Assembly (NCBI GenBank): GCA_030603365.1
Contig: JAUVXV010000007.1
Span: 32,001-96,000 of the forward strand
Source: Candidatus Heimdallarchaeota archaeon
GTDB lineage: Archaea > Asgardarchaeota > Heimdallarchaeia > Heimdallarchaeales > Heimdallarchaeaceae
Reading direction: 5' to 3'
DNA length: 64,000 nt
A model generated the notes under the pieces. The model worked only from the letters and a program-made list of their open reading frames with translations. It did no database searches and was not told the origin of the DNA. The number at the start of each line of letters is the position of its first letter. Position 1 is the first letter of the stretch. Shown here piece by piece: positions 55,875-64,000 of the stretch. Position numbers and translations under genes: made by a program.

Positions 55875-57629
55875 TTAGAAAAGATACTTCACTTTCCACT
55901 CTTTTTTAGGAAACATGTAATTGAAAGTGAAAACAAGAAGAACTAAGCAGACAGCTTCACAAGTGAAAATTAGCCAATATCCAACAACAGCTGAAAAAAT
56001 AAACATAACCATCATTAAAGATATTAGAAGTATAATAAGAACATATTTAGAGAATTTATATTATCCTCTGATTTCTTCAACGACATATTTGTGCTTGAAC
56101 TTACCAAATAAACGAACTTTTAGTAGAAGTCCAGCTACACCAATTATCGGAAAAACAGGTAAGAAGGATAAGGTAAGATACAGTGTTCCAATGAAAATGG
56201 GTGTTTTAATCATTACTAGAAGAGACAGAAGCATACCAATTACTATTGTTCCGAAGAAATATGGAATTTTAGATTTCATCTTGTCTCTTTCGTTGATTGG
56301 TAGAGCTGCCATGATTGTTTCTCCTCCCGTTTCTATAGTTGTTGTACTAACAATCATGGCCATTGTATTTGTCAGTACATAAATCATCATGATAATAAAA
56401 TATGCAGTTACTGTCGTGTTTCCATAGATTACATGAAAGTCTTCAACATAACCAGTAAGTGCAGTATAAATTGGCATCATAATCGGTAATATGAGAACAA
56501 CAATTTGTTGCATTTCTCTTGTGACAATTGAAAGATCACGTTTCATAAAAGCCCTAACTGGAGGAAGATTTTTAGTAGAAATGTCTTCTACTTTTGTTTT
56601 TCTTCTTATGATTTCCTTTCTTTTTATTTCAGGAGATGAAATGTTTCTTAATATAGTAAGAGCTTTTCTAATTACTAAGAAAGTAATTAAACAATAGAAT
56701 AAAAATCCAATAACAGAACCAACTATTGTTAGTGGGGCTACACCGTTAAAATCTAAAACAAACATTGATAGTAGATATCCACTTGAGAAAGGATATGGAA
56801 CAAACGAAAGTATGTTACTAATTAAGGTTGAATCTTTAATAGATAATCCGTTCAAGCCATAAAAAGCATCTAAATTCTGTATACCAATATTTACTGCTCC
56901 TATAATAAACATTGACACAAAGAAATAAGCAAACATGGTTCCAATTCGAATAAAACTTGCTTTTTTTGATGCAAAATCATACTCTTCCATCACAATAGCT
57001 AGTTTTCGTGATAAGATAACCAATATACCAATGTTAAAACATGTGTTAACCAAAGAAAGAACTATACTTATTAGAAGAATAGCAACTATTTTCCAGATAC
57101 TAATATAAGGTCCAATTGTCAAGCTTATAACTACAGTCATTCCAATCGGTAAGACAAGTGTCATGGCAATTAGTTGAACATTGATACTTCTAACGAAAGT
57201 TAGTAAACCTATTTTTTCGATTTCCTTTCTGCTGAATGGGAGTGTGTGTATCCATTCGTAAGGTCCACCAGACATTATTCCCCAAGCTAGCATTAAAGCA
57301 AATACAACCAGAATTACAAGTTGAACAAAGAAGAAGGCACCATTAACAATACCACTAGCAAAATTAAGCCATTCAAATGAAGAACCTTCAGATAATTGTC
57401 GATACATTGAAGAGACTGAAACAATAGGGATAAAAGTTAGTGAAGCGATATATATTGTTGCTAGAAATTTATAGATTATATCTGGAGATCTTGCTATTCT
57501 ATCTTTTTCAATTCTTTCCAGATATCTCTGCTGATTACTTCCAGCAGATTGAAGTTGAGCGTGAAGCACCGCTTCTTTATAGACTCTTTTAGAAGCTTTG
57601 TACAGTTCTTTATTTCTCAGAAGAATCAC
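55875..57629 (-). CDS. ABC exporter permease with an in-frame TAA at 56061-56063 ahead of the last two TM helices
   Basis: Multi-TM, LPFS motif, AFMKRDL. The same frame continues 61 codons past the TAA (YKFSKYVLIILLISLMMVMFIFSAVVGYWLIFTCEAVCLVLLVFTFNYMFPKK...) to TAA at 55875. Confidence 0.78.
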
Positions 57630-58453
57630 TTCTTTTTATCATTATGAAACATCTTCCTAAGATTTTGAATAATATGATTCACTGACTCATCTTGTTGAGT
57701 TAGTTTAAGAAAAATCGTTTCCAGATCAGCACCTGCCTTATCTGCCAGTTCTGAGAGTTCTTTTACTGTACCTAAAGCAACAAGTTTACCTCTATCCAGG
57801 ATAGCTATTCTATCACACATATCCTCTGCAATTTCAAGAATGTGTGTAGAAAAAATAACTGATCCTCCTCTTTCACTATGAAGTTCTATAATCTCTTTTA
57901 CGACTTTGGCAGATTTCGCATCTAAACCTGTAAGTGGTTCATCTAGAATTAGTAAATCTGGATCATGAATTAAAGAGGCTATAACTTGCATCTTCTGTTT
58001 ATTTCCTCGAGAAAGTGTAGCTACAAGTTTTTCATAATATTCAACAGCCTCCAAACTCTCTAGATAATAACGAAGCTTTTCTGTGGTTTCAGCTTCATCT
58101 AAATTACGTATTGAAGTAATGAAATCAAATAACATTCGAGGTGTCATTGACTTATAGATTAGAGGATCTTCTGAAACATATCCTAGTCTTTTTTTAATCT
58201 CTATTTCTTCTTTCTCAGGATGGAGTCCGAAAACCTCAATATCACCTTGATCTAATTCCAGAAGCCCTAAAAGCAATTTCACAGTTGTAGTTTTACCTGC
58301 TCCATTGGGTCCTAACAACCCAAATATTTCTCCAGGTTTGACTTCAAAAGACAAATTATTTACAGCTACAACGTCACCAAAACTCTTAGTAATATTTTGT
58401 ACTTTAACCATTGGTTCTAATTCAACATTCATCACAATCTTCCCACAAGACAA
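57626..58453 (-). CDS. ABC transporter ATP-binding protein
   Basis: GPNGAGKTT, LSRGNKQK, LLILDEP, STH. Overlaps the permease start by 4 nt. Confidence 0.95.
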   Translation of the reverse strand: MSCGKIVMNVELEPMVKVQNITKSFGDVVAVNNLSFEVKPGEIFGLLGPNGAGKTTTVKLLLGLLELDQGDIEVFGLHPEKEEIEIKKRLGYVSEDPLIYKSMTPRMLFDFITSIRNLDEAETTEKLRYYLESLEAVEYYEKLVATLSRGNKQKMQVIASLIHDPDLLILDEPLTGLDAKSAKVVKEIIELHSERGGSVIFSTHILEIAEDMCDRIAILDRGKLVALGTVKELSELADKAGADLETIFLKLTQQDESVNHIIQNLRKMFHNDKKK

Positions 58454-58520: not shown

Positions 58521-59930
58521 TTAAATCAGCTTCATTAAAAGAGGATTACGCTTAAGTGCTAATCCTATTGCCTTATTTACAAAACTTTTAGGAAAACCTG
58601 AATGCTCGAATAAATTTTGAAAAAGTAATTCTGCTTGCTCTTGCGAATAAAGAGAGAATGAAGTGATAATATATGACATTGAAACTAGTTTTCTTAATTC
58701 ATTAAAGATTTCAATTGCAGTTTTATTAATATCTTTATCAATATTCTTCTCATATAATCCAAAAAAGTACTCACTTGCTTGATGACCTTTAACACTACCT
58801 TCAATGAGATTGATAACAACTATCTCACCAAGCTGATTTTTTGTTAGGATAAGTTTATCAAAGAGTTCTTTGTTCATCCCACATAATCCAACATCAAGTT
58901 CTGAAACAATATTAATTGCATCTTCTTCATTATCTACCCATCCTTTAACTTTTATTGCGAGGTGTTGGTTGAAAATTGAGAGTGTATCAATTGTTATCTT
59001 AACTGTTAATTTATCACCTACAACAATCACTTTTTTTCCTGTTGTTACGGAATACAATACTTGATCTAGATTTTTTAATATAGCATTTGAAAGATACGCT
59101 AATGATAATTCCTCAACATCGGTATGAGTAAAATGGTTCCCAGAATCTTCTATATTTTGAATAAGATCGAGAACATCTAACATTTCAAATCTATAATCTT
59201 GATCAGATAGAATACGCAGTTTCTCCTCAATCAAAGGAAACAATCTGAAAACTGTATGATCTAACTCTGGAGAAAACCTCAGTATTCCTACGTTTGTCCT
59301 CATTTCATCCTTCTCAATAACTAATAGTTCTGAAGTTTTTTTCTCAGGAACAAATAACAGAAGTCCTGTTAACTGATTTTCAAAATCATATTTGATTCTA
59401 TGGTTAATAATCATATCAAGTGTTTCTTTGGCTTCTACTTTTTTACCAACAGATTCAATTATTTCAGTGTCTGTTTCATCAAAATGAATCAAACTAAACA
59501 CCTTGGGTTCTGATTCTCGTAAAGGATTTTTAGAGAAGAATAGAGGTAAATTGTAGATATCATGCAAAATGTGTTCGAGTATTAGAGCTGCTTCTCCTTC
59601 AGAAATCAGATTTTCATCCCTATCTTCAAGCAAAGGACTTGCACTGAAATGAATTTGTTCCAGGATTTGTTCAAGATGTCGCTCTGAGAATAGAGTTTCT
59701 TCTACTTTAGTTTCAAGAATAAAAATAAAATCATAAACTTCAACAAAGGAGATGTTTTTGTCATGATAAGAAATTGATTGAAGTTCTTGACGGTGAACTT
59801 CTTTAGCGAAAGTGATAATTGCACTAATCAAACCTGAGGCTAAGATGTGCCTAGTATCATCAGCTGATTCGGGTTTAGTAGCTAACAACAATCCTGAACC
59901 TGAAACCAGTGAAAGTTGCAAGTTTCGCAT
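58521..59930 (-). CDS. Longin plus DENN-like protein (paralog A)
   Basis: N-terminal SGLLL...LASGLISAIITFAKEV...LQSISY longin pattern; later LDQVLYSVTTGKKVIVVGDK...IDTLSIF...GLCG...VVINL, resembling a cDENN core. Confidence 0.68.
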   Translation of the reverse strand: MRNLQLSLVSGSGLLLATKPESADDTRHILASGLISAIITFAKEVHRQELQSISYHDKNISFVEVYDFIFILETKVEETLFSERHLEQILEQIHFSASPLLEDRDENLISEGEAALILEHILHDIYNLPLFFSKNPLRESEPKVFSLIHFDETDTEIIESVGKKVEAKETLDMIINHRIKYDFENQLTGLLLFVPEKKTSELLVIEKDEMRTNVGILRFSPELDHTVFRLFPLIEEKLRILSDQDYRFEMLDVLDLIQNIEDSGNHFTHTDVEELSLAYLSNAILKNLDQVLYSVTTGKKVIVVGDKLTVKITIDTLSIFNQHLAIKVKGWVDNEEDAINIVSELDVGLCGMNKELFDKLILTKNQLGEIVVINLIEGSVKGHQASEYFFGLYEKNIDKDINKTAIEIFNELRKLVSMSYIITSFSLYSQEQAELLFQNLFEHSGFPKSFVNKAIGLALKRNPLLMKLI

Positions 59931-60024: not shown

Positions 60025-60780
60025 ATGAAAACTAGCACTATCCTCTATCAAGAACTAGTTCATAATGCTTGGGCTGCAGAGCATAATGTTCTCTATAAAG
60101 GATGGATATTAAGACTATCAGAAGGGATTACACAAAGAGCAAATAGTGTTCTAACAATCAGATATCTGGGAAATGATGTAATAACTGATATTCGTAATAT
60201 AGAAAATATATTTCAGAGTAGAAATCTTCCGCCTATTTTTCAAGTAGCAGATTATTTTGAACCTTCTAATCTAATTAAAATTTTGATTGGTGAAGGATAT
60301 CATGCCAGAGATGAAACTATAGTTATGAGTAGAAGTACTGAAATATCACAGAATATTGAAAAAAATGAAAATTTGACTTATTTGATTGAGGAAGGAGTCC
60401 CAGATATATGGTTTAAATCATTAACTAAATTTAGTTCCTCATCTGAAATAAGGATTAAAGGTATCGAGAATATAATTAGCAGATCTTCTGCAGAGAAAAT
60501 AACATGTTTTGCTCAAGATGGTAATGAGATAACAGGAATAGTTTTAGGACTTAGGGAAGGAGATTATATTGGGATATATAATCTAACAGTGGATTCCCAA
60601 AGAAGAAGAGAAAGAATCGGTAAGAGCATAATGTTGAAACTAATGGATTGGGCACACAAAAGCAATATAGGGGTGGTTTATCTTGCTGTAGAAGATGACA
60701 ATGTAGGTGCTCGAAAATTATACCAAAAGCTGAATTTTGAAGAGAAATTCAAATACAGATATTTTGTTAGAGAAGAATAA
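60025..60780 (+). CDS. GNAT family N-acetyltransferase
   Basis: GW.LR...G.T.RANSV N-domain; V....RRERIG; LAVEDDNVGARKLYQKLNF. Confidence 0.9.
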   Translation: MKTSTILYQELVHNAWAAEHNVLYKGWILRLSEGITQRANSVLTIRYLGNDVITDIRNIENIFQSRNLPPIFQVADYFEPSNLIKILIGEGYHARDETIVMSRSTEISQNIEKNENLTYLIEEGVPDIWFKSLTKFSSSSEIRIKGIENIISRSSAEKITCFAQDGNEITGIVLGLREGDYIGIYNLTVDSQRRRERIGKSIMLKLMDWAHKSNIGVVYLAVEDDNVGARKLYQKLNFEEKFKYRYFVREE

Positions 60781-60787
60781 ATGAATA

Positions 60788-62194
60788 TTAGAGCAGATAG
60801 TCCAAAAGAGGGTTTCTTCTTACTGCCATTTCTAATGCTTTCTTAATAAAAGTTGAAGAATATCCTGATTGAGAACTTATCTCTTTCAATTTCTGTTTAC
60901 CTTTTACTTCATCTACTAAACTAATTGATGTCATATCAAGAGAAAGTGCTACTAGTTTTTCCAGATCTAGAGCTATTTTTGTAACTATTTCTGCTATTGA
61001 TAGTTTCTTTATTGTATCAAATAATTTTTTGAAATGATGGCTTGATTTAGCTCCAGTAACTCGACTATTTACTAGATTGATGCATACATCTGTTTCCTTA
61101 ATTGTTTCACTACTTAGGAGCGCGTTATAAATTTCTGTAGACATTCCACACATTCTAGCCGAAAGATCACACTTTCCATTTTGAGAAAAATCGTCAGCAG
61201 ATATCCACAAATTGACAGAAGTTTGTAGGTGCTGTGTGAATATGGACATAGAATCAATAACAAGTTTTACTGTTGGTTTATCTCCTACAATGAAAATTGG
61301 TTCTCCAATAACTGCAGAATAAATTGCTTTATCAAGATTACGTCCTACAGTTCTAACTAAGAATGAAGGAGATAAATCCTCTAGATTTATTCTTGATAAT
61401 CGATTTCCTGGATCATCGATGTCTTTTAACGTGTTTAATATGCGTTCCATACTCAAAATTTCTTTGTCTTCTGACATTACTGAAAGCATTCTATCCATCA
61501 TAGTAAACAGCCTGAATAACACCAAATCTAATTCACGTGATATCTTTAAAATTCCTACACGAGAAGTTTTTCCATCTGTGTCAATAACAGTATATGTAGT
61601 ACTCTTTTCTTCAGGTATATGTGTTAGTATTCCTTTTAACCCATTAATACATTTTTCATTTGCTTTTAAGGTATCAAGCATCAATGCAATTGTTGGTATA
61701 AATGATCCGGAACCCACCTTATCTTTAATTTCCCAACCTTTGTCTGTATGAAATAATGTGAAATAAGCACTTTCTGACATTTTTAGAGGTTGTTCAGTGA
61801 TTGAATAATGTAATAATTGAACACCTTGTAGACATTTATCTAGAATTATAGCAGCTTCTCCTTCAGTTATTATATTTGGGTCAACTCCTTCTAGAATTGG
61901 TTCTGTACATTCTTTTAACTGTTGGAGTAATTGTCCAAGCTTTTGTTCAGAAAGTGTTGCTTCTTCATCAATAGTTTCCAAAATTAAGACGAATTCGTGT
62001 ACTCTTACAAATGAAACAGTACGATCATGATAAGAGATAGACTGTAATTCTCTATGATGTACTTCTTTAGAAAAAGAAATCAATGCTGTCATTAAGCCTG
62101 TTGCTAAAATCTGTCTTGTATCATCTACAGCTTCAGGTTTTGAAGCTAGAAGTATACCTGAAGAAGTAACAAGAGATATCTTAATGTTTAGCAT
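60788..62194 (-). CDS. Longin plus DENN-like protein (paralog B)
   Basis: Colinear with 58521-59930: DDTRQILATGLMTALISFSKEVHHRELQSISYHD; LDKAIYSAVIGEPIFIVGDK; RRNPLL terminus. Confidence 0.68.
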   Translation of the reverse strand: MLNIKISLVTSSGILLASKPEAVDDTRQILATGLMTALISFSKEVHHRELQSISYHDRTVSFVRVHEFVLILETIDEEATLSEQKLGQLLQQLKECTEPILEGVDPNIITEGEAAIILDKCLQGVQLLHYSITEQPLKMSESAYFTLFHTDKGWEIKDKVGSGSFIPTIALMLDTLKANEKCINGLKGILTHIPEEKSTTYTVIDTDGKTSRVGILKISRELDLVLFRLFTMMDRMLSVMSEDKEILSMERILNTLKDIDDPGNRLSRINLEDLSPSFLVRTVGRNLDKAIYSAVIGEPIFIVGDKPTVKLVIDSMSIFTQHLQTSVNLWISADDFSQNGKCDLSARMCGMSTEIYNALLSSETIKETDVCINLVNSRVTGAKSSHHFKKLFDTIKKLSIAEIVTKIALDLEKLVALSLDMTSISLVDEVKGKQKLKEISSQSGYSSTFIKKALEMAVRRNPLLDYLL

Positions 62195-62501: not shown

Positions 62502-63335
62502 TCAGTTCTTAGTATTTTGTTGATATTGCATTTCAAACCAAGATTTCTTTCGTATCAACTTTCTGTACCAAGCTGGCATTACCCACCCAAGATACATTGC
62601 AACATAAGCTGTTGCATATGAGATTGCTCGAAAAGCTGAAATTGTAATCATCAAAGCTGGAATATTAGGAATACTACCATGCAAAGCTGAAAACAACCAC
62701 GCTAATAGATATAAAAACACTCCAACACTAATTGTTTGTAATCCTCTCTTTCTAATAGGGTGATCTGATTTTCTTGCAAGCCTAAAAGCTCTAAATCCTA
62801 TTCTACCTGTAACAAAAATTGAGACTACTATTTGGACTAAAAGGATGGGCCAAGTATATGAAATTGCAAATACATTCTTAGTGATGTAGGTTGGTTCAGA
62901 ATACAATGAATGTGTATATATATTATCATAAGCAATTACAGCAGTAACAATACCATAAACTACCATTATTACAGCAAAAATATAGGTTTTGATAATTTCA
63001 TTATCTTTTAAAATATGTCTACAGCCAAAGAAATAGAGAAATGCAAATGCAGGGAGGATAATTAATGGAGTTAAAGACCCTATCTGATAAATAGTATCAG
63101 TCATCACACCTTCATTGTAAATGAGCGAAATACGGTATGCAATACTAAAAGCTGATGCTAAAGAAAATAGGAAGTAGGATGAAAGTAACATGAATGTGCC
63201 TACAGTTTTCTTGCGAAAGAAGTTGACTAAGAGCGTGATAACTAGTGCTAGACTGAAAGCCATGTTTATTACAGATGTAATAATTATGAAAAATGATGCA
63301 GGTTCTATTGCTGAAAGATCTACCATCATCATCAC
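62502..63335 (-). CDS. Seven-transmembrane protein
   Basis: Seven hydrophobic segments, basic loops after TM1 (RKK) and TM5 (RLARKSDHPIRKR), TM7 followed by YLGWVMPAWY and a basic tail. Confidence 0.78.
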   Translation of the reverse strand: MMMMVDLSAIEPASFFIIITSVINMAFSLALVITLLVNFFRKKTVGTFMLLSSYFLFSLASAFSIAYRISLIYNEGVMTDTIYQIGSLTPLIILPAFAFLYFFGCRHILKDNEIIKTYIFAVIMVVYGIVTAVIAYDNIYTHSLYSEPTYITKNVFAISYTWPILLVQIVVSIFVTGRIGFRAFRLARKSDHPIRKRGLQTISVGVFLYLLAWLFSALHGSIPNIPALMITISAFRAISYATAYVAMYLGWVMPAWYRKLIRKKSWFEMQYQQNTKN

Positions 63336-63860
63336 CTAGACAAACTCATCAACAAACCATTTGAAGGCATTGAATATTCCTTCTCCTGTCTTTGCTGAGG
63401 TTTCAAAAACTGCCCATTTAAAAGGTAAATCCAACAACTTGAATTCTTCAATAAAGAGTGATTTTTCTATAACATCAGATTCATCACTCTTATTGAGTAA
63501 AATTAATATTATCAAATCTTGATCCAATTGTGCGTGAATGGTTTGTTCAAACACATCCTTTGCCTCATCAAATCTCATAATATTAGATCGATCAATAACG
63601 AATACAATTCCATCAGATTTTTCGTTGATATTGTGCCACATATTTCTGAAATCTTCCTGACCAGCTAAATCAAAAACGTTAATTTGTAAATTTGGTAAGT
63701 GTAAGGTTTCTCTATTCACACCCATAGTTGGAGTTGTTTCAACGAATTCACCAGTTTCTAGAAACTTTAGTATAGTTGTTTTACCAGCATCATCTAGACC
63801 ACAGATTGTTATATCTGCATGTTTTGTTCTGCTTCGAAATAGGTTTAGTAAGAACGACAT
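63336..63860 (-). CDS. Arf-family small GTPase with N-terminal amphipathic helix
   Basis: MSFLLNLF helix, GLDDAGKTT, PTMGVN, FDLAGQ..FR.MW, IVFVID, NKSD, TSAKTGEGI...FKW. Confidence 0.93.
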   Translation of the reverse strand: MSFLLNLFRSRTKHADITICGLDDAGKTTILKFLETGEFVETTPTMGVNRETLHLPNLQINVFDLAGQEDFRNMWHNINEKSDGIVFVIDRSNIMRFDEAKDVFEQTIHAQLDQDLIILILLNKSDESDVIEKSLFIEEFKLLDLPFKWAVFETSAKTGEGIFNAFKWFVDEFV

Positions 63861-63873
63861 ATTTTTCCCTCAA

Positions 63874-64000
63874 CTAATCCCACAAATCATCAGATAGCTT
63901 ATCTATCGCATTACCATTCTTGTCATTTCCTTGTTTTGGAAAATCAAATTTTATGGTTGACGTAGAAGTTATCTCTATTTTGAACTGTCCTTTGCTAAAT
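63874..64000 (-). CDS. 3' end of an upstream co-directional gene (partial, unknown)
   Basis: Open frame ...FSKGQFKIEITSTSTIKFDFPKQGNDKNGNAIDKLSDDLWD* ending 13 nt before the Arf ATG. Confidence 0.55.
   Translation of the reverse strand, partial: FSKGQFKIEITSTSTIKFDFPKQGNDKNGNAIDKLSDDLWD

Follow-up and report, generated by a model that had tools for sequence, protein, structure and literature searches.

A seven-transmembrane-helix (7TM) protein encoded directly behind an Arf-family GTPase in an archaeal genome raises the question of whether the two work together as a receptor and its G protein do, or whether another partner connects the membrane protein to the GTPase. The two genes lie at the end of a 64,000-nucleotide stretch, called the window below (contig C11:32001-96000; GenBank contig JAUVXV010000007.1), of the genome of a Candidatus Heimdallarchaeota archaeon (assembly GCA_030603365.1; 3.65 Mb, 89% complete). 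An earlier note, made from the sequence alone, had proposed a stand-alone 7TM sensor that recruits or activates the Arf-like GTPase. Reading beyond the window end reveals a third gene of the same unit, which encodes a small protein of 164 amino acids (aa), UP164, and lies 13 nucleotides (nt) ahead of the Arf ATG; it was overlooked by the earlier note because the gene runs off the window. We put the probability that UP164, Arf, and 7TM form one membrane-associated GTPase switch at about one half.

A three-gene cassette and its conservation

The cassette is read on the minus strand in the order UP164-Arf-7TM and consists of the following parts.

63874 to 64000, minus strand: 3' end (last 41 codons and stop) of the UP164 gene, which has 164 codons and runs on to the window-equivalent position 64368 (full gene, L005:1875-2369:-)
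63861 to 63873, minus strand: 13-nt spacer between the UP164 stop codon (TAG) and the Arf ATG, with a Shine-Dalgarno-like GAGGG inside
63336 to 63860, minus strand: Arf-family small GTPase, 174 aa, recognized by its Pfam Arf match and its G motifs
62502 to 63335, minus strand: stand-alone 7TM membrane protein, 277 aa, N-out/C-in, recognized by seven hydrophobic segments, its AlphaFold2 (AF2) model, and its Lys/Arg (K/R) bias

The Arf TAG abuts the GTG start codon of the 7TM gene with 0 nt between them (minus strand, GTC TAG GTG ATG ATG ATG), and a Shine-Dalgarno-like AGGTGA sequence spans the Arf stop codon, just as the earlier note had read this junction. One of the ATG codons located 1 to 3 codons past the GTG could be the real start, in which case the protein would be shorter by up to three residues. 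An AT-rich stretch with TATA-like elements is located upstream of the UP164 gene.

We find 28 close relatives of the 7TM protein, each of them from an Asgard metagenome, and 71 cluster representatives in a large library. Among 301 Asgard genomes scanned, 104 contain matches, the scores of which are bimodal, and relatives that score at least 230 bits, the core subfamily, are found in 16 genomes belonging to two families of one class, with up to seven copies per genome. In a set of 19 loci from species-representative genomes, an Arf gene lies directly upstream of all 16 clear 7TM homologues (27 to 85% identity), and UP164 precedes the Arf in all 14 of those loci that have enough flank. A set of 16 core loci, which overlaps the former set, contains 13 loci with the order UP164-Arf-7TM and three (L084, L086, and L089) in which UP164 stands directly before the 7TM gene without an Arf. 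The 7TM gene of L086 is split by stop codons, and the Arf gene of a further locus, L080, looks broken. After the removal of duplicates, 20 distinct complete cassettes are left, and among 32 related loci, a set with some repeat entries, nearly all have a spacing from Arf to 7TM of approximately -8 to +8 nt. Only UP164, Arf, and 7TM recur across the cassettes; the other neighbors are lineage-specific, and no conserved effector gene in cis is found across the cassettes. The linkage of the 7TM to Arf genes in related genomes, on which the earlier note had made its proposal depend, is kept down to 27% 7TM identity.

The pairwise distances of the three cassette proteins correlate with r = 0.88 to 0.90, the 7TM-Arf pair being the highest (0.90), and paralogous cassettes of one genome group with orthologues of other genomes for all three proteins. 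The cassette therefore duplicates and diverges as a unit, and the fact that the three genes stay linked while their flanks all differ speaks for a functional unit. If the three products merely shared an operon and worked independently, their adjacency would be inherited synteny; all of the loci do belong to related Asgard lineages, and gene order is shared among kin. Against this explanation, which we consider very improbable, the linkage is kept when 7TM identity falls to 27% and when paralogous cassettes within a single genome are compared, with other flanks that all differ, and start and stop codons abut or overlap. In addition, distant families again show a 7TM paired with a small protein that bears a characteristic tail, the two genes being either co-directional or divergent, as described below.

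The 7TM protein and the Arf GTPase

The AF2 model of the 7TM protein, based on a 50-sequence alignment, has a predicted local distance difference test (pLDDT) score of 93.9 and a predicted template modeling (pTM) score of 0.88; a single-sequence model with a pLDDT of 66.5 was discarded. The model contains seven transmembrane helices (TM1 to TM7: residues 12-42, 45-73, 80-107, 113-140, 162-189, 193-219, and 226-252), a β-hairpin in the second extracellular loop (ECL2), which joins TM4 to TM5, and, behind TM7, two short helices (residues 255-261 and 266-276). Across the family, the inner loops carry 18.3 K/R residues per sequence and the outer loops 1.4, which places the N terminus outside and the C terminus inside. 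Eight K/R residues are found at positions 178-197 between TM5 and TM6, and the third intracellular loop (ICL3) and the tail together hold approximately 13 K/R residues per sequence in the family. The earlier note had described a 277-aa protein with seven hydrophobic helices, a basic TM5-TM6 loop, and an amphipathic tail after TM7, with N-out topology as a point to check, and the hydrophobic segments, the model, and the K/R bias agree with this description, the tail appearing as a helix-8-like segment in the model. The absence of a fused enzyme or kinase output also holds: the window protein has no Pfam domain, the family is never fused to an output domain, and its longest relatives, of 398 aa, are likewise without a Pfam domain.

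Conservation is higher in the cytoplasmic half of the 7TM protein than in the outer half (0.53 vs 0.33, p = 1e-13). The conserved cytoplasmic motifs are RKKTxGT in the first intracellular loop (ICL1), CRHILKDNE at the end of TM3 and in ICL2, and the basic TM5-TM6 stretch at residues 178-200, and TM7 is followed by a conserved YLGWxMPxW motif and a basic tail. Arg106 at the cytoplasmic end of TM3 is nearly invariant. The outer loops, on the other hand, vary in sequence and length, and so does the length of ECL2. Arg236, buried midway along TM7, does not vary among close relatives and is also conserved across the wide family; it may point to a site for a ligand or an ion or to a micro-switch. 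In one 7TM subfamily (L047, L049-L051, L075, L079, L080, and L085), the tail is 30 to 60 residues longer and ends in ...V-E-V-S-E/D instead of SWFExQY, and this ending may be a second docking motif.

A conserved cytoplasmic docking face combined with a poorly conserved outer half would also suit a 7TM protein that acts as a passive anchor or assembly site for UP164 and Arf, or as their regulated target (a transporter, channel, or cargo). The 7TM lacks a ligand-binding ectodomain, the Arf has a membrane helix of its own, and there are eukaryotic precedents: the polytopic lysosomal proteins SLC38A9 and PQLC2, which are transporters with folds that differ from that of the 7TM, form contacts with Rag regulators or with the C9orf72 longin complex, and the Gly2-less Arl3 (Arl3/ARFRP1) is received by Sys1. 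Three observations oppose this explanation. Receptors make up the top structural matches of the 7TM model, the best 50 of which include no transporter or channel; the buried Arg236 and the variable length of ECL2 hint at a site inside the bundle; and up to seven diverged 7TM copies per genome, each studied cassette having its own Arf and regulator, suit parallel inputs better, such copy numbers being expected of parallel sensory channels. We regard an anchor or target role as a real but minor possibility.

The structural matches were obtained with two programs. A Foldseek search of the Protein Data Bank (PDB) with the 7TM model returns class A G protein-coupled receptors (GPCRs) as all of the top 50 matches (E = 8.4e-5 to 2e-3, TM-score of approximately 0.5). 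With VIA-align against 48,161 representative chains, the top 50 are again all GPCRs (classes A, B, C, F, and T), with Z = 12.3 to 16.0 and root mean square deviation (rmsd) values of approximately 4 to 6 Å over 209 to 249 residues, on a scale on which unrelated helical bundles can reach Z of approximately 13 to 14. Among predicted structures, the best annotated matches are HisKA_7TM domains (TM-score = 0.66 to 0.71, rmsd = 3.7 to 4.1 Å, 225 to 254 residues) from structure clusters in which 75 to 98% of the members carry PF16927. The model is thus GPCR-like and not transporter-like, which was the outcome that the earlier note had looked for, and the predicted fold is matched equally by GPCRs and by the prokaryotic HisKA_7TM domains. 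Since helical bundles score high without kinship, we take the resemblance to GPCRs as shared architecture only and not as homology. At the sequence level, none of 24 family members matches a GPCR family at E ≤ 10 or the HisKA_7TM family PF16927, and a comparison with 20 Heimdall HisKA_7TM domains by hhalign gives a probability of 0.4%.

PF16927 has no match anywhere in the genome of this archaeon. True HisKA_7TM histidine kinases (approximately 600 aa) occur in 19 of 22 genomes of the sister genus g9 (L055-L074), are absent from the genome studied here, and are found in 1 of 12 other sampled genomes of its genus. Insect-chemoreceptor-like 7TM ion channels, which have been reported in Heimdallarchaeota, were considered as a further candidate and rejected, as they are absent among the structural matches of the 7TM model; such channels have the topology opposite to N-out.

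The Arf protein matches the Pfam family Arf (PF00025) with E = 8e-41 and 139.8 bits (cut-off, 22.3) and contains the P-loop GLDDAGKT, the switch I motif PTMG, DLAGQ with the catalytic Gln, NKSD, and SAK. Its N terminus is MSFLLNLFRSR, in which Ser2 takes the place of the Gly2 that is N-myristoylated in many eukaryotic Arfs and MSFLLNLF is the N-terminal helix; both features had been read by the earlier note, and the hydrophobic moment is only moderate (0.25 to 0.37). Gly2 is present in just 1 of 17 cassette Arfs, and the SFLxxLF helix is conserved among them with invariant Phe3 and Phe8. The cassette Arfs carry conserved motifs of their own (ICGLD and NEKS) and form a single clade (support, 0.996) apart from approximately 30 other small GTPases of the same genome. 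The closest solved relative is GerdArfR1 (8OUN, E = 1.6e-29), and a sub-threshold cross-match to the Gα family of Pfam is observed (36.7 bits; cut-off, 48.8).

These features bear on direct GPCR-like coupling, the reading of the earlier note, in which the 7TM would bind the Arf through its TM3/TM5/TM6/helix-8 face as an exchange factor or recruiter, and UP164 would be an off-switch resembling a regulator of G protein signaling (RGS). The ECL2 hairpin, the extended TM5 and TM6, and the helix-8-like segment of the predicted fold are in keeping with such coupling, as are the Gα cross-match of the Arf, the Arf stop codon abutting the 7TM start codon, and the 7TM-Arf distance correlation, the highest of the three pairs. 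The near-invariant Arg106 points the same way; the Arg of the DRY motif in class A GPCRs contacts Gα in the region of the TM3 end, and we take Arg106 to be a candidate equivalent only. Against this explanation, there is no sequence homology with GPCRs, HisKA_7TM domains match the fold equally, and 3 of the 16 core loci have UP164 and the 7TM with no Arf between them. A prediction of the 7TM-Arf complex gave ipSAE values of 0.26 and 0.23 (mark, 0.32), to which we give no weight either way. The wider 7TM superfamily adds to the points against direct coupling, as it is widespread without an adjacent GTPase and nearly always accompanied by a small roadblock-type partner. Overall, we think direct coupling unlikely.

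Small partner proteins and the wider 7TM superfamily

Distant relatives of the 7TM protein (30 to 90 bits) occur in many Asgard lineages with no Arf or UP164 nearby, and one of them is a paralogue in the same genome (C2:116828-117556; L108:5817-6608:-). This paralogue is part of a tight operon with a gene for a 148-aa roadblock-type protein upstream and a gene for a 336-aa GNAT-containing protein downstream. At 11 distinct distant-7TM loci, a protein of approximately 148 aa precedes the 7TM at a spacing of -13 to +12 nt, and in two further lineages a divergent relative of 137 aa adjoins the 7TM in divergent orientation. The partner family belongs to roadblock/LC7: three close members carry PF03259 and are so named by the sources, and the family profile matches the solved Robl_LC7 structure 7F8F with E = 1.8e-4 and dynein LC7 with E = 0.006 to 0.04. 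It also aligns with an hhalign probability of 84% to the N-terminal domain of LD468a and its paralogue LD469b, proteins encoded downstream of the cassette in the window.

UP164 is a candidate for a small soluble regulator, and its family has at least 141 members, an invariant or near-invariant Arg71, and an acidic C-terminal tail, which reads ...DDLWD in the protein studied here. A Trp residue is found within the last three residues of 116 of 117 UP164 proteins and of 84 of 87 roadblock-type partners, where the tails take the forms ...DDLW plus 0 to 1 residue and ...D-S-L/F-W or ...A-L-W, respectively. The alignment of the UP164 and roadblock partner families by hhalign matches 14 residues of the tail (E = 0.03, probability 1.7%). 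None of the seven canonical Robl_LC7 proteins of the same genome, none of which adjoins a 7TM gene, has this Trp tail. The roadblock pairing and the shared Trp tail therefore indicate that a small protein of the GTPase-regulator type, ending in an acidic Trp tail, is the constant partner of the 7TM superfamily. This partnership, and not that with the Arf, is the ancient one; the Arf gene was inserted later and has co-diversified since.

Apart from the tail, UP164 shows no similarity to the LD468a N terminus or to the roadblock partner family by hhalign. Fifteen members have no match in Pfam, including NPR2 and Folliculin, and UP164 has no match among PDB profiles. The genome studied here contains no relevant match to the NPR2 or Folliculin profile, and 201 Asgard genomes contain no match to the NPR2 profile. 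In language-model features, UP164 is nearest to Asgard clusters with 19% NPR2-carrying members (score, 0.91). A longin-type GTPase-activating protein (GAP) that uses Arg71 is a lead for the identity of UP164, not a result.

The proposed switch, neighboring genes, and related systems

We favor the reading in which UP164, Arf, and 7TM constitute one switch at the membrane, with contacts and a direction of signaling that we infer as follows. The 7TM, whose receptor-type bundle varies in its outer half and is near-invariant and strongly basic on its cytoplasmic face, would serve as the membrane input or platform. It would hold or control UP164, probably via the acidic C-terminal ...DDLW tail, the charge of which is opposite to that of the basic ICL3 and tail of the 7TM. 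UP164 would set the nucleotide state of its dedicated Arf, most likely as a longin-type GAP via Arg71, with a guanine nucleotide exchange factor (GEF) function also possible. In its GTP form, the Arf would bind the membrane by its N-terminal helix and recruit effectors encoded outside the conserved block. The earlier proposal of a stand-alone 7TM sensor acting on the Arf stands in part. The 7TM is stand-alone and N-out, with a GPCR-like predicted fold and a basic TM5-TM6 face, and it is linked to a dedicated Arf clade; on the other hand, the unit comprises three genes, the small protein is the constant partner, HisKA_7TM domains fit the fold at least equally well, and no sequence homology to the 7TM was detected among GPCRs or HisKA_7TM domains.

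Several points weigh against the three-protein switch. Linked genes co-diverge by shared descent alone, and related genomes are not independent samples. UP164 has no profile match to longin, roadblock, NPR2, or folliculin in Pfam, the PDB, or the profiles used, and the docking by the tail depends on the short motif of the 14-residue hhalign match described above. The 7TM model is a prediction of a helical bundle, a kind of structure that easily scores high. The highest distance correlation, that of 7TM and Arf, and the abutting Arf stop and 7TM start codons fit direct coupling equally well, and the cassettes have no conserved effector gene in cis.

A bolder version of the switch would make the cassette a prokaryotic receptor-G protein system in the archaea most closely related to eukaryotes, in which a 7TM of predicted GPCR-like fold controls a GTPase of the Arf branch, a minimal single-domain longin GAP is the off-switch, and the roadblock-7TM pairs found across Asgard archaea are the older form. 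The cassette would then be a living analogue, or possibly a relative, of the system from which GPCR/Gα/RGS signaling and longin-GAP nutrient sensing arose. Gα is thought to derive from the Arf branch. We judge this version improbable.

Two further features of the window lie downstream of the cassette.

60788 to 62194, minus strand: LD468a, a 468-aa protein with a longin/roadblock-type N terminus (weak match to Pfam Intu_longin_1, E = 0.00097)
58521 to 59930, minus strand: LD469b, a 469-aa paralogue of LD468a (approximately 38% identity between the paralogue lineages)

LD468a is possibly longin-DENN-like, a homologue having a faint SMCR8_C match, and may be an effector or regulator of the cassette. 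It is linked to the cassette in close relatives only, being present in 6 of 16 loci, and the LD468a/LD469b pair is conserved in L036 and L039-L041. Between the two genes lies a GNAT acetyltransferase gene (60025-60780, plus strand). A conserved N-acetylation partner was considered and rejected, as the acetyltransferases found near the two 7TM loci in this genome have only the GNAT fold in common, and the downstream genes of two genomes, of 336 aa and 337 aa, show no relationship either. Following LD469b, an ABC ATPase gene (275 aa) and an overlapping 522-aa gene occupy 56061-58453 (minus strand), where relatives have genes for ABC_tran and 12TM_1 proteins. Directly behind the 7TM gene, the segment 62303-62485 (minus strand) is a remnant of a gene of 285 to 301 aa that follows the 7TM in six related loci and gives weak Flavin_Reduct and PCP_red matches; the last 61 codons are kept (75% identity), the first approximately 225 are deleted, and an open reading frame of 39 aa is left. 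Past the window end, L005:2808-8580 (plus strand) contains two consecutive TldD/PmbA-like gene pairs, one such pair also being found upstream of the cassette in close relatives, and L005:9594-11892 (minus strand) contains two adjoining genes for membrane-anchored proteins with C-terminal Cys-rich RING-like fingers.

The cassette is classed with those prokaryotic small-GTPase modules that combine a membrane sensor with a regulator of the roadblock or longin type. In the current model of the actinobacterial conservons (CvnA-D; Komatsu 2006, in the account of the citing paper PMC13343842), a membrane sensor controls a Ras-like GTPase indirectly, via a roadblock GAP or via a GEF. Both systems are operons of a membrane sensor, a small regulator of the roadblock superfamily, and a Ras-superfamily GTPase, with many paralogous copies per genome, the sensor and regulator roles being putative in the cassette. 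In conservons, however, the sensor is histidine-kinase-like, the GTPase is MglA/Ras-like, and there is a fourth protein, the GEF CvnC, whereas the cassette combines a stand-alone 7TM with an Arf, has no kinase domain, and has only three recurring genes; the likeness is one of logic only. The true roadblock/LC7 partner of the distant 7TM proteins is of the MglB type, a class of small-GTPase regulators, as in MglA-MglB and Asgard roadblock-GTPase pairs; MglB systems are without a dedicated 7TM partner. The 7TM protein itself resembles HisKA_7TM as a prokaryotic seven-helix module with a shared predicted fold; HisKA_7TM input modules are fused to kinase, GGDEF, HD, or DUF835 outputs, in contrast to the always stand-alone cassette family.

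Among eukaryotic systems, the cassette is similar to GPCR-Gα-RGS in the predicted seven-helix N-out fold, whose cytoplasmic face is conserved and which includes a hairpin in ECL2 and a helix-8-like tail, and in having a GTPase of the Arf/Gα branch and a separate candidate GAP. The differences are that the cassette GTPase is a plain Arf with no helical insert or βγ partners, that the 7TM is without sequence homology to the GPCR families of Pfam, and that its constant partner is a small regulator. In lysosomal nutrient sensing, polytopic membrane proteins, as proposed here for the 7TM, recruit longin- or roadblock-type regulators of Arf or Rag GTPases (GATOR1/NPRL2, FLCN, and C9orf72-SMCR8), the GAPs of which use a longin arginine finger. 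These GAPs are large multi-subunit complexes, in contrast to UP164, which has no NPR2 or folliculin match in Pfam. NPRL2-like longins are abundant in Asgard archaea, and a possible role as GAPs for ArfR or Rag has been proposed for Asgard longins of the FLCN/SMCR8 type that have an arginine finger (PMC12290439).

The Arf of the cassette shares a Gly2-less SFLxxLF-type N-terminal helix with GerdArfR1 (PDB 8OUN/8OUM), which binds membranes in a GTP- and helix-dependent manner and has an interswitch toggle (Vargova et al. preprint, 10.1101/2024.02.28.582541; Zhu et al., PMC11914678); HodArfR1 and Arl8 are likewise without Gly2. The cassette Arfs differ from the other Asgard ArfR/AArf proteins in being a clade of their own with their own motifs. 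Neither the Vargova et al. preprint nor Zhu et al. mentions gene neighborhoods or membrane partners of Asgard Arfs. A different operon, with LAMTOR1-like, Rab-like, and DENN genes, has been described by Liu et al., and Asgard structural clusters of 7TM and GPCR-like type are listed, without gene context, in a 2026 preprint. We found no description of a UP164-Arf-7TM operon in the literature searched, and the roadblock-7TM pairing, the shared C-terminal Trp tail, and the equal match to HisKA_7TM are apparently new as far as is known.

Asgard Arfs have been crystallized and bind membranes by means of GTP and the N-terminal helix, and their native regulators (GEFs and GAPs), membrane partners, and function are stated as unknown (Zhu et al., PMC11914678). 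The GTPase genes of Asgard MK-D1 generally lie outside operons with roadblock or longin genes (Tran et al., PMC10933270), and this separation from the operons of likely regulators makes the matching of GTPases and regulators hard. The cassette provides matched triplets of a GTPase, a candidate regulator, and a membrane partner in many diverged copies and thereby names testable candidate partners for archaeal Arf GTPases. If the 7TM proves to be a sensor, receptor-controlled small-GTPase signaling would predate eukaryotes, and this would be relevant to how GPCR-G protein coupling and longin-GAP nutrient sensing originated.

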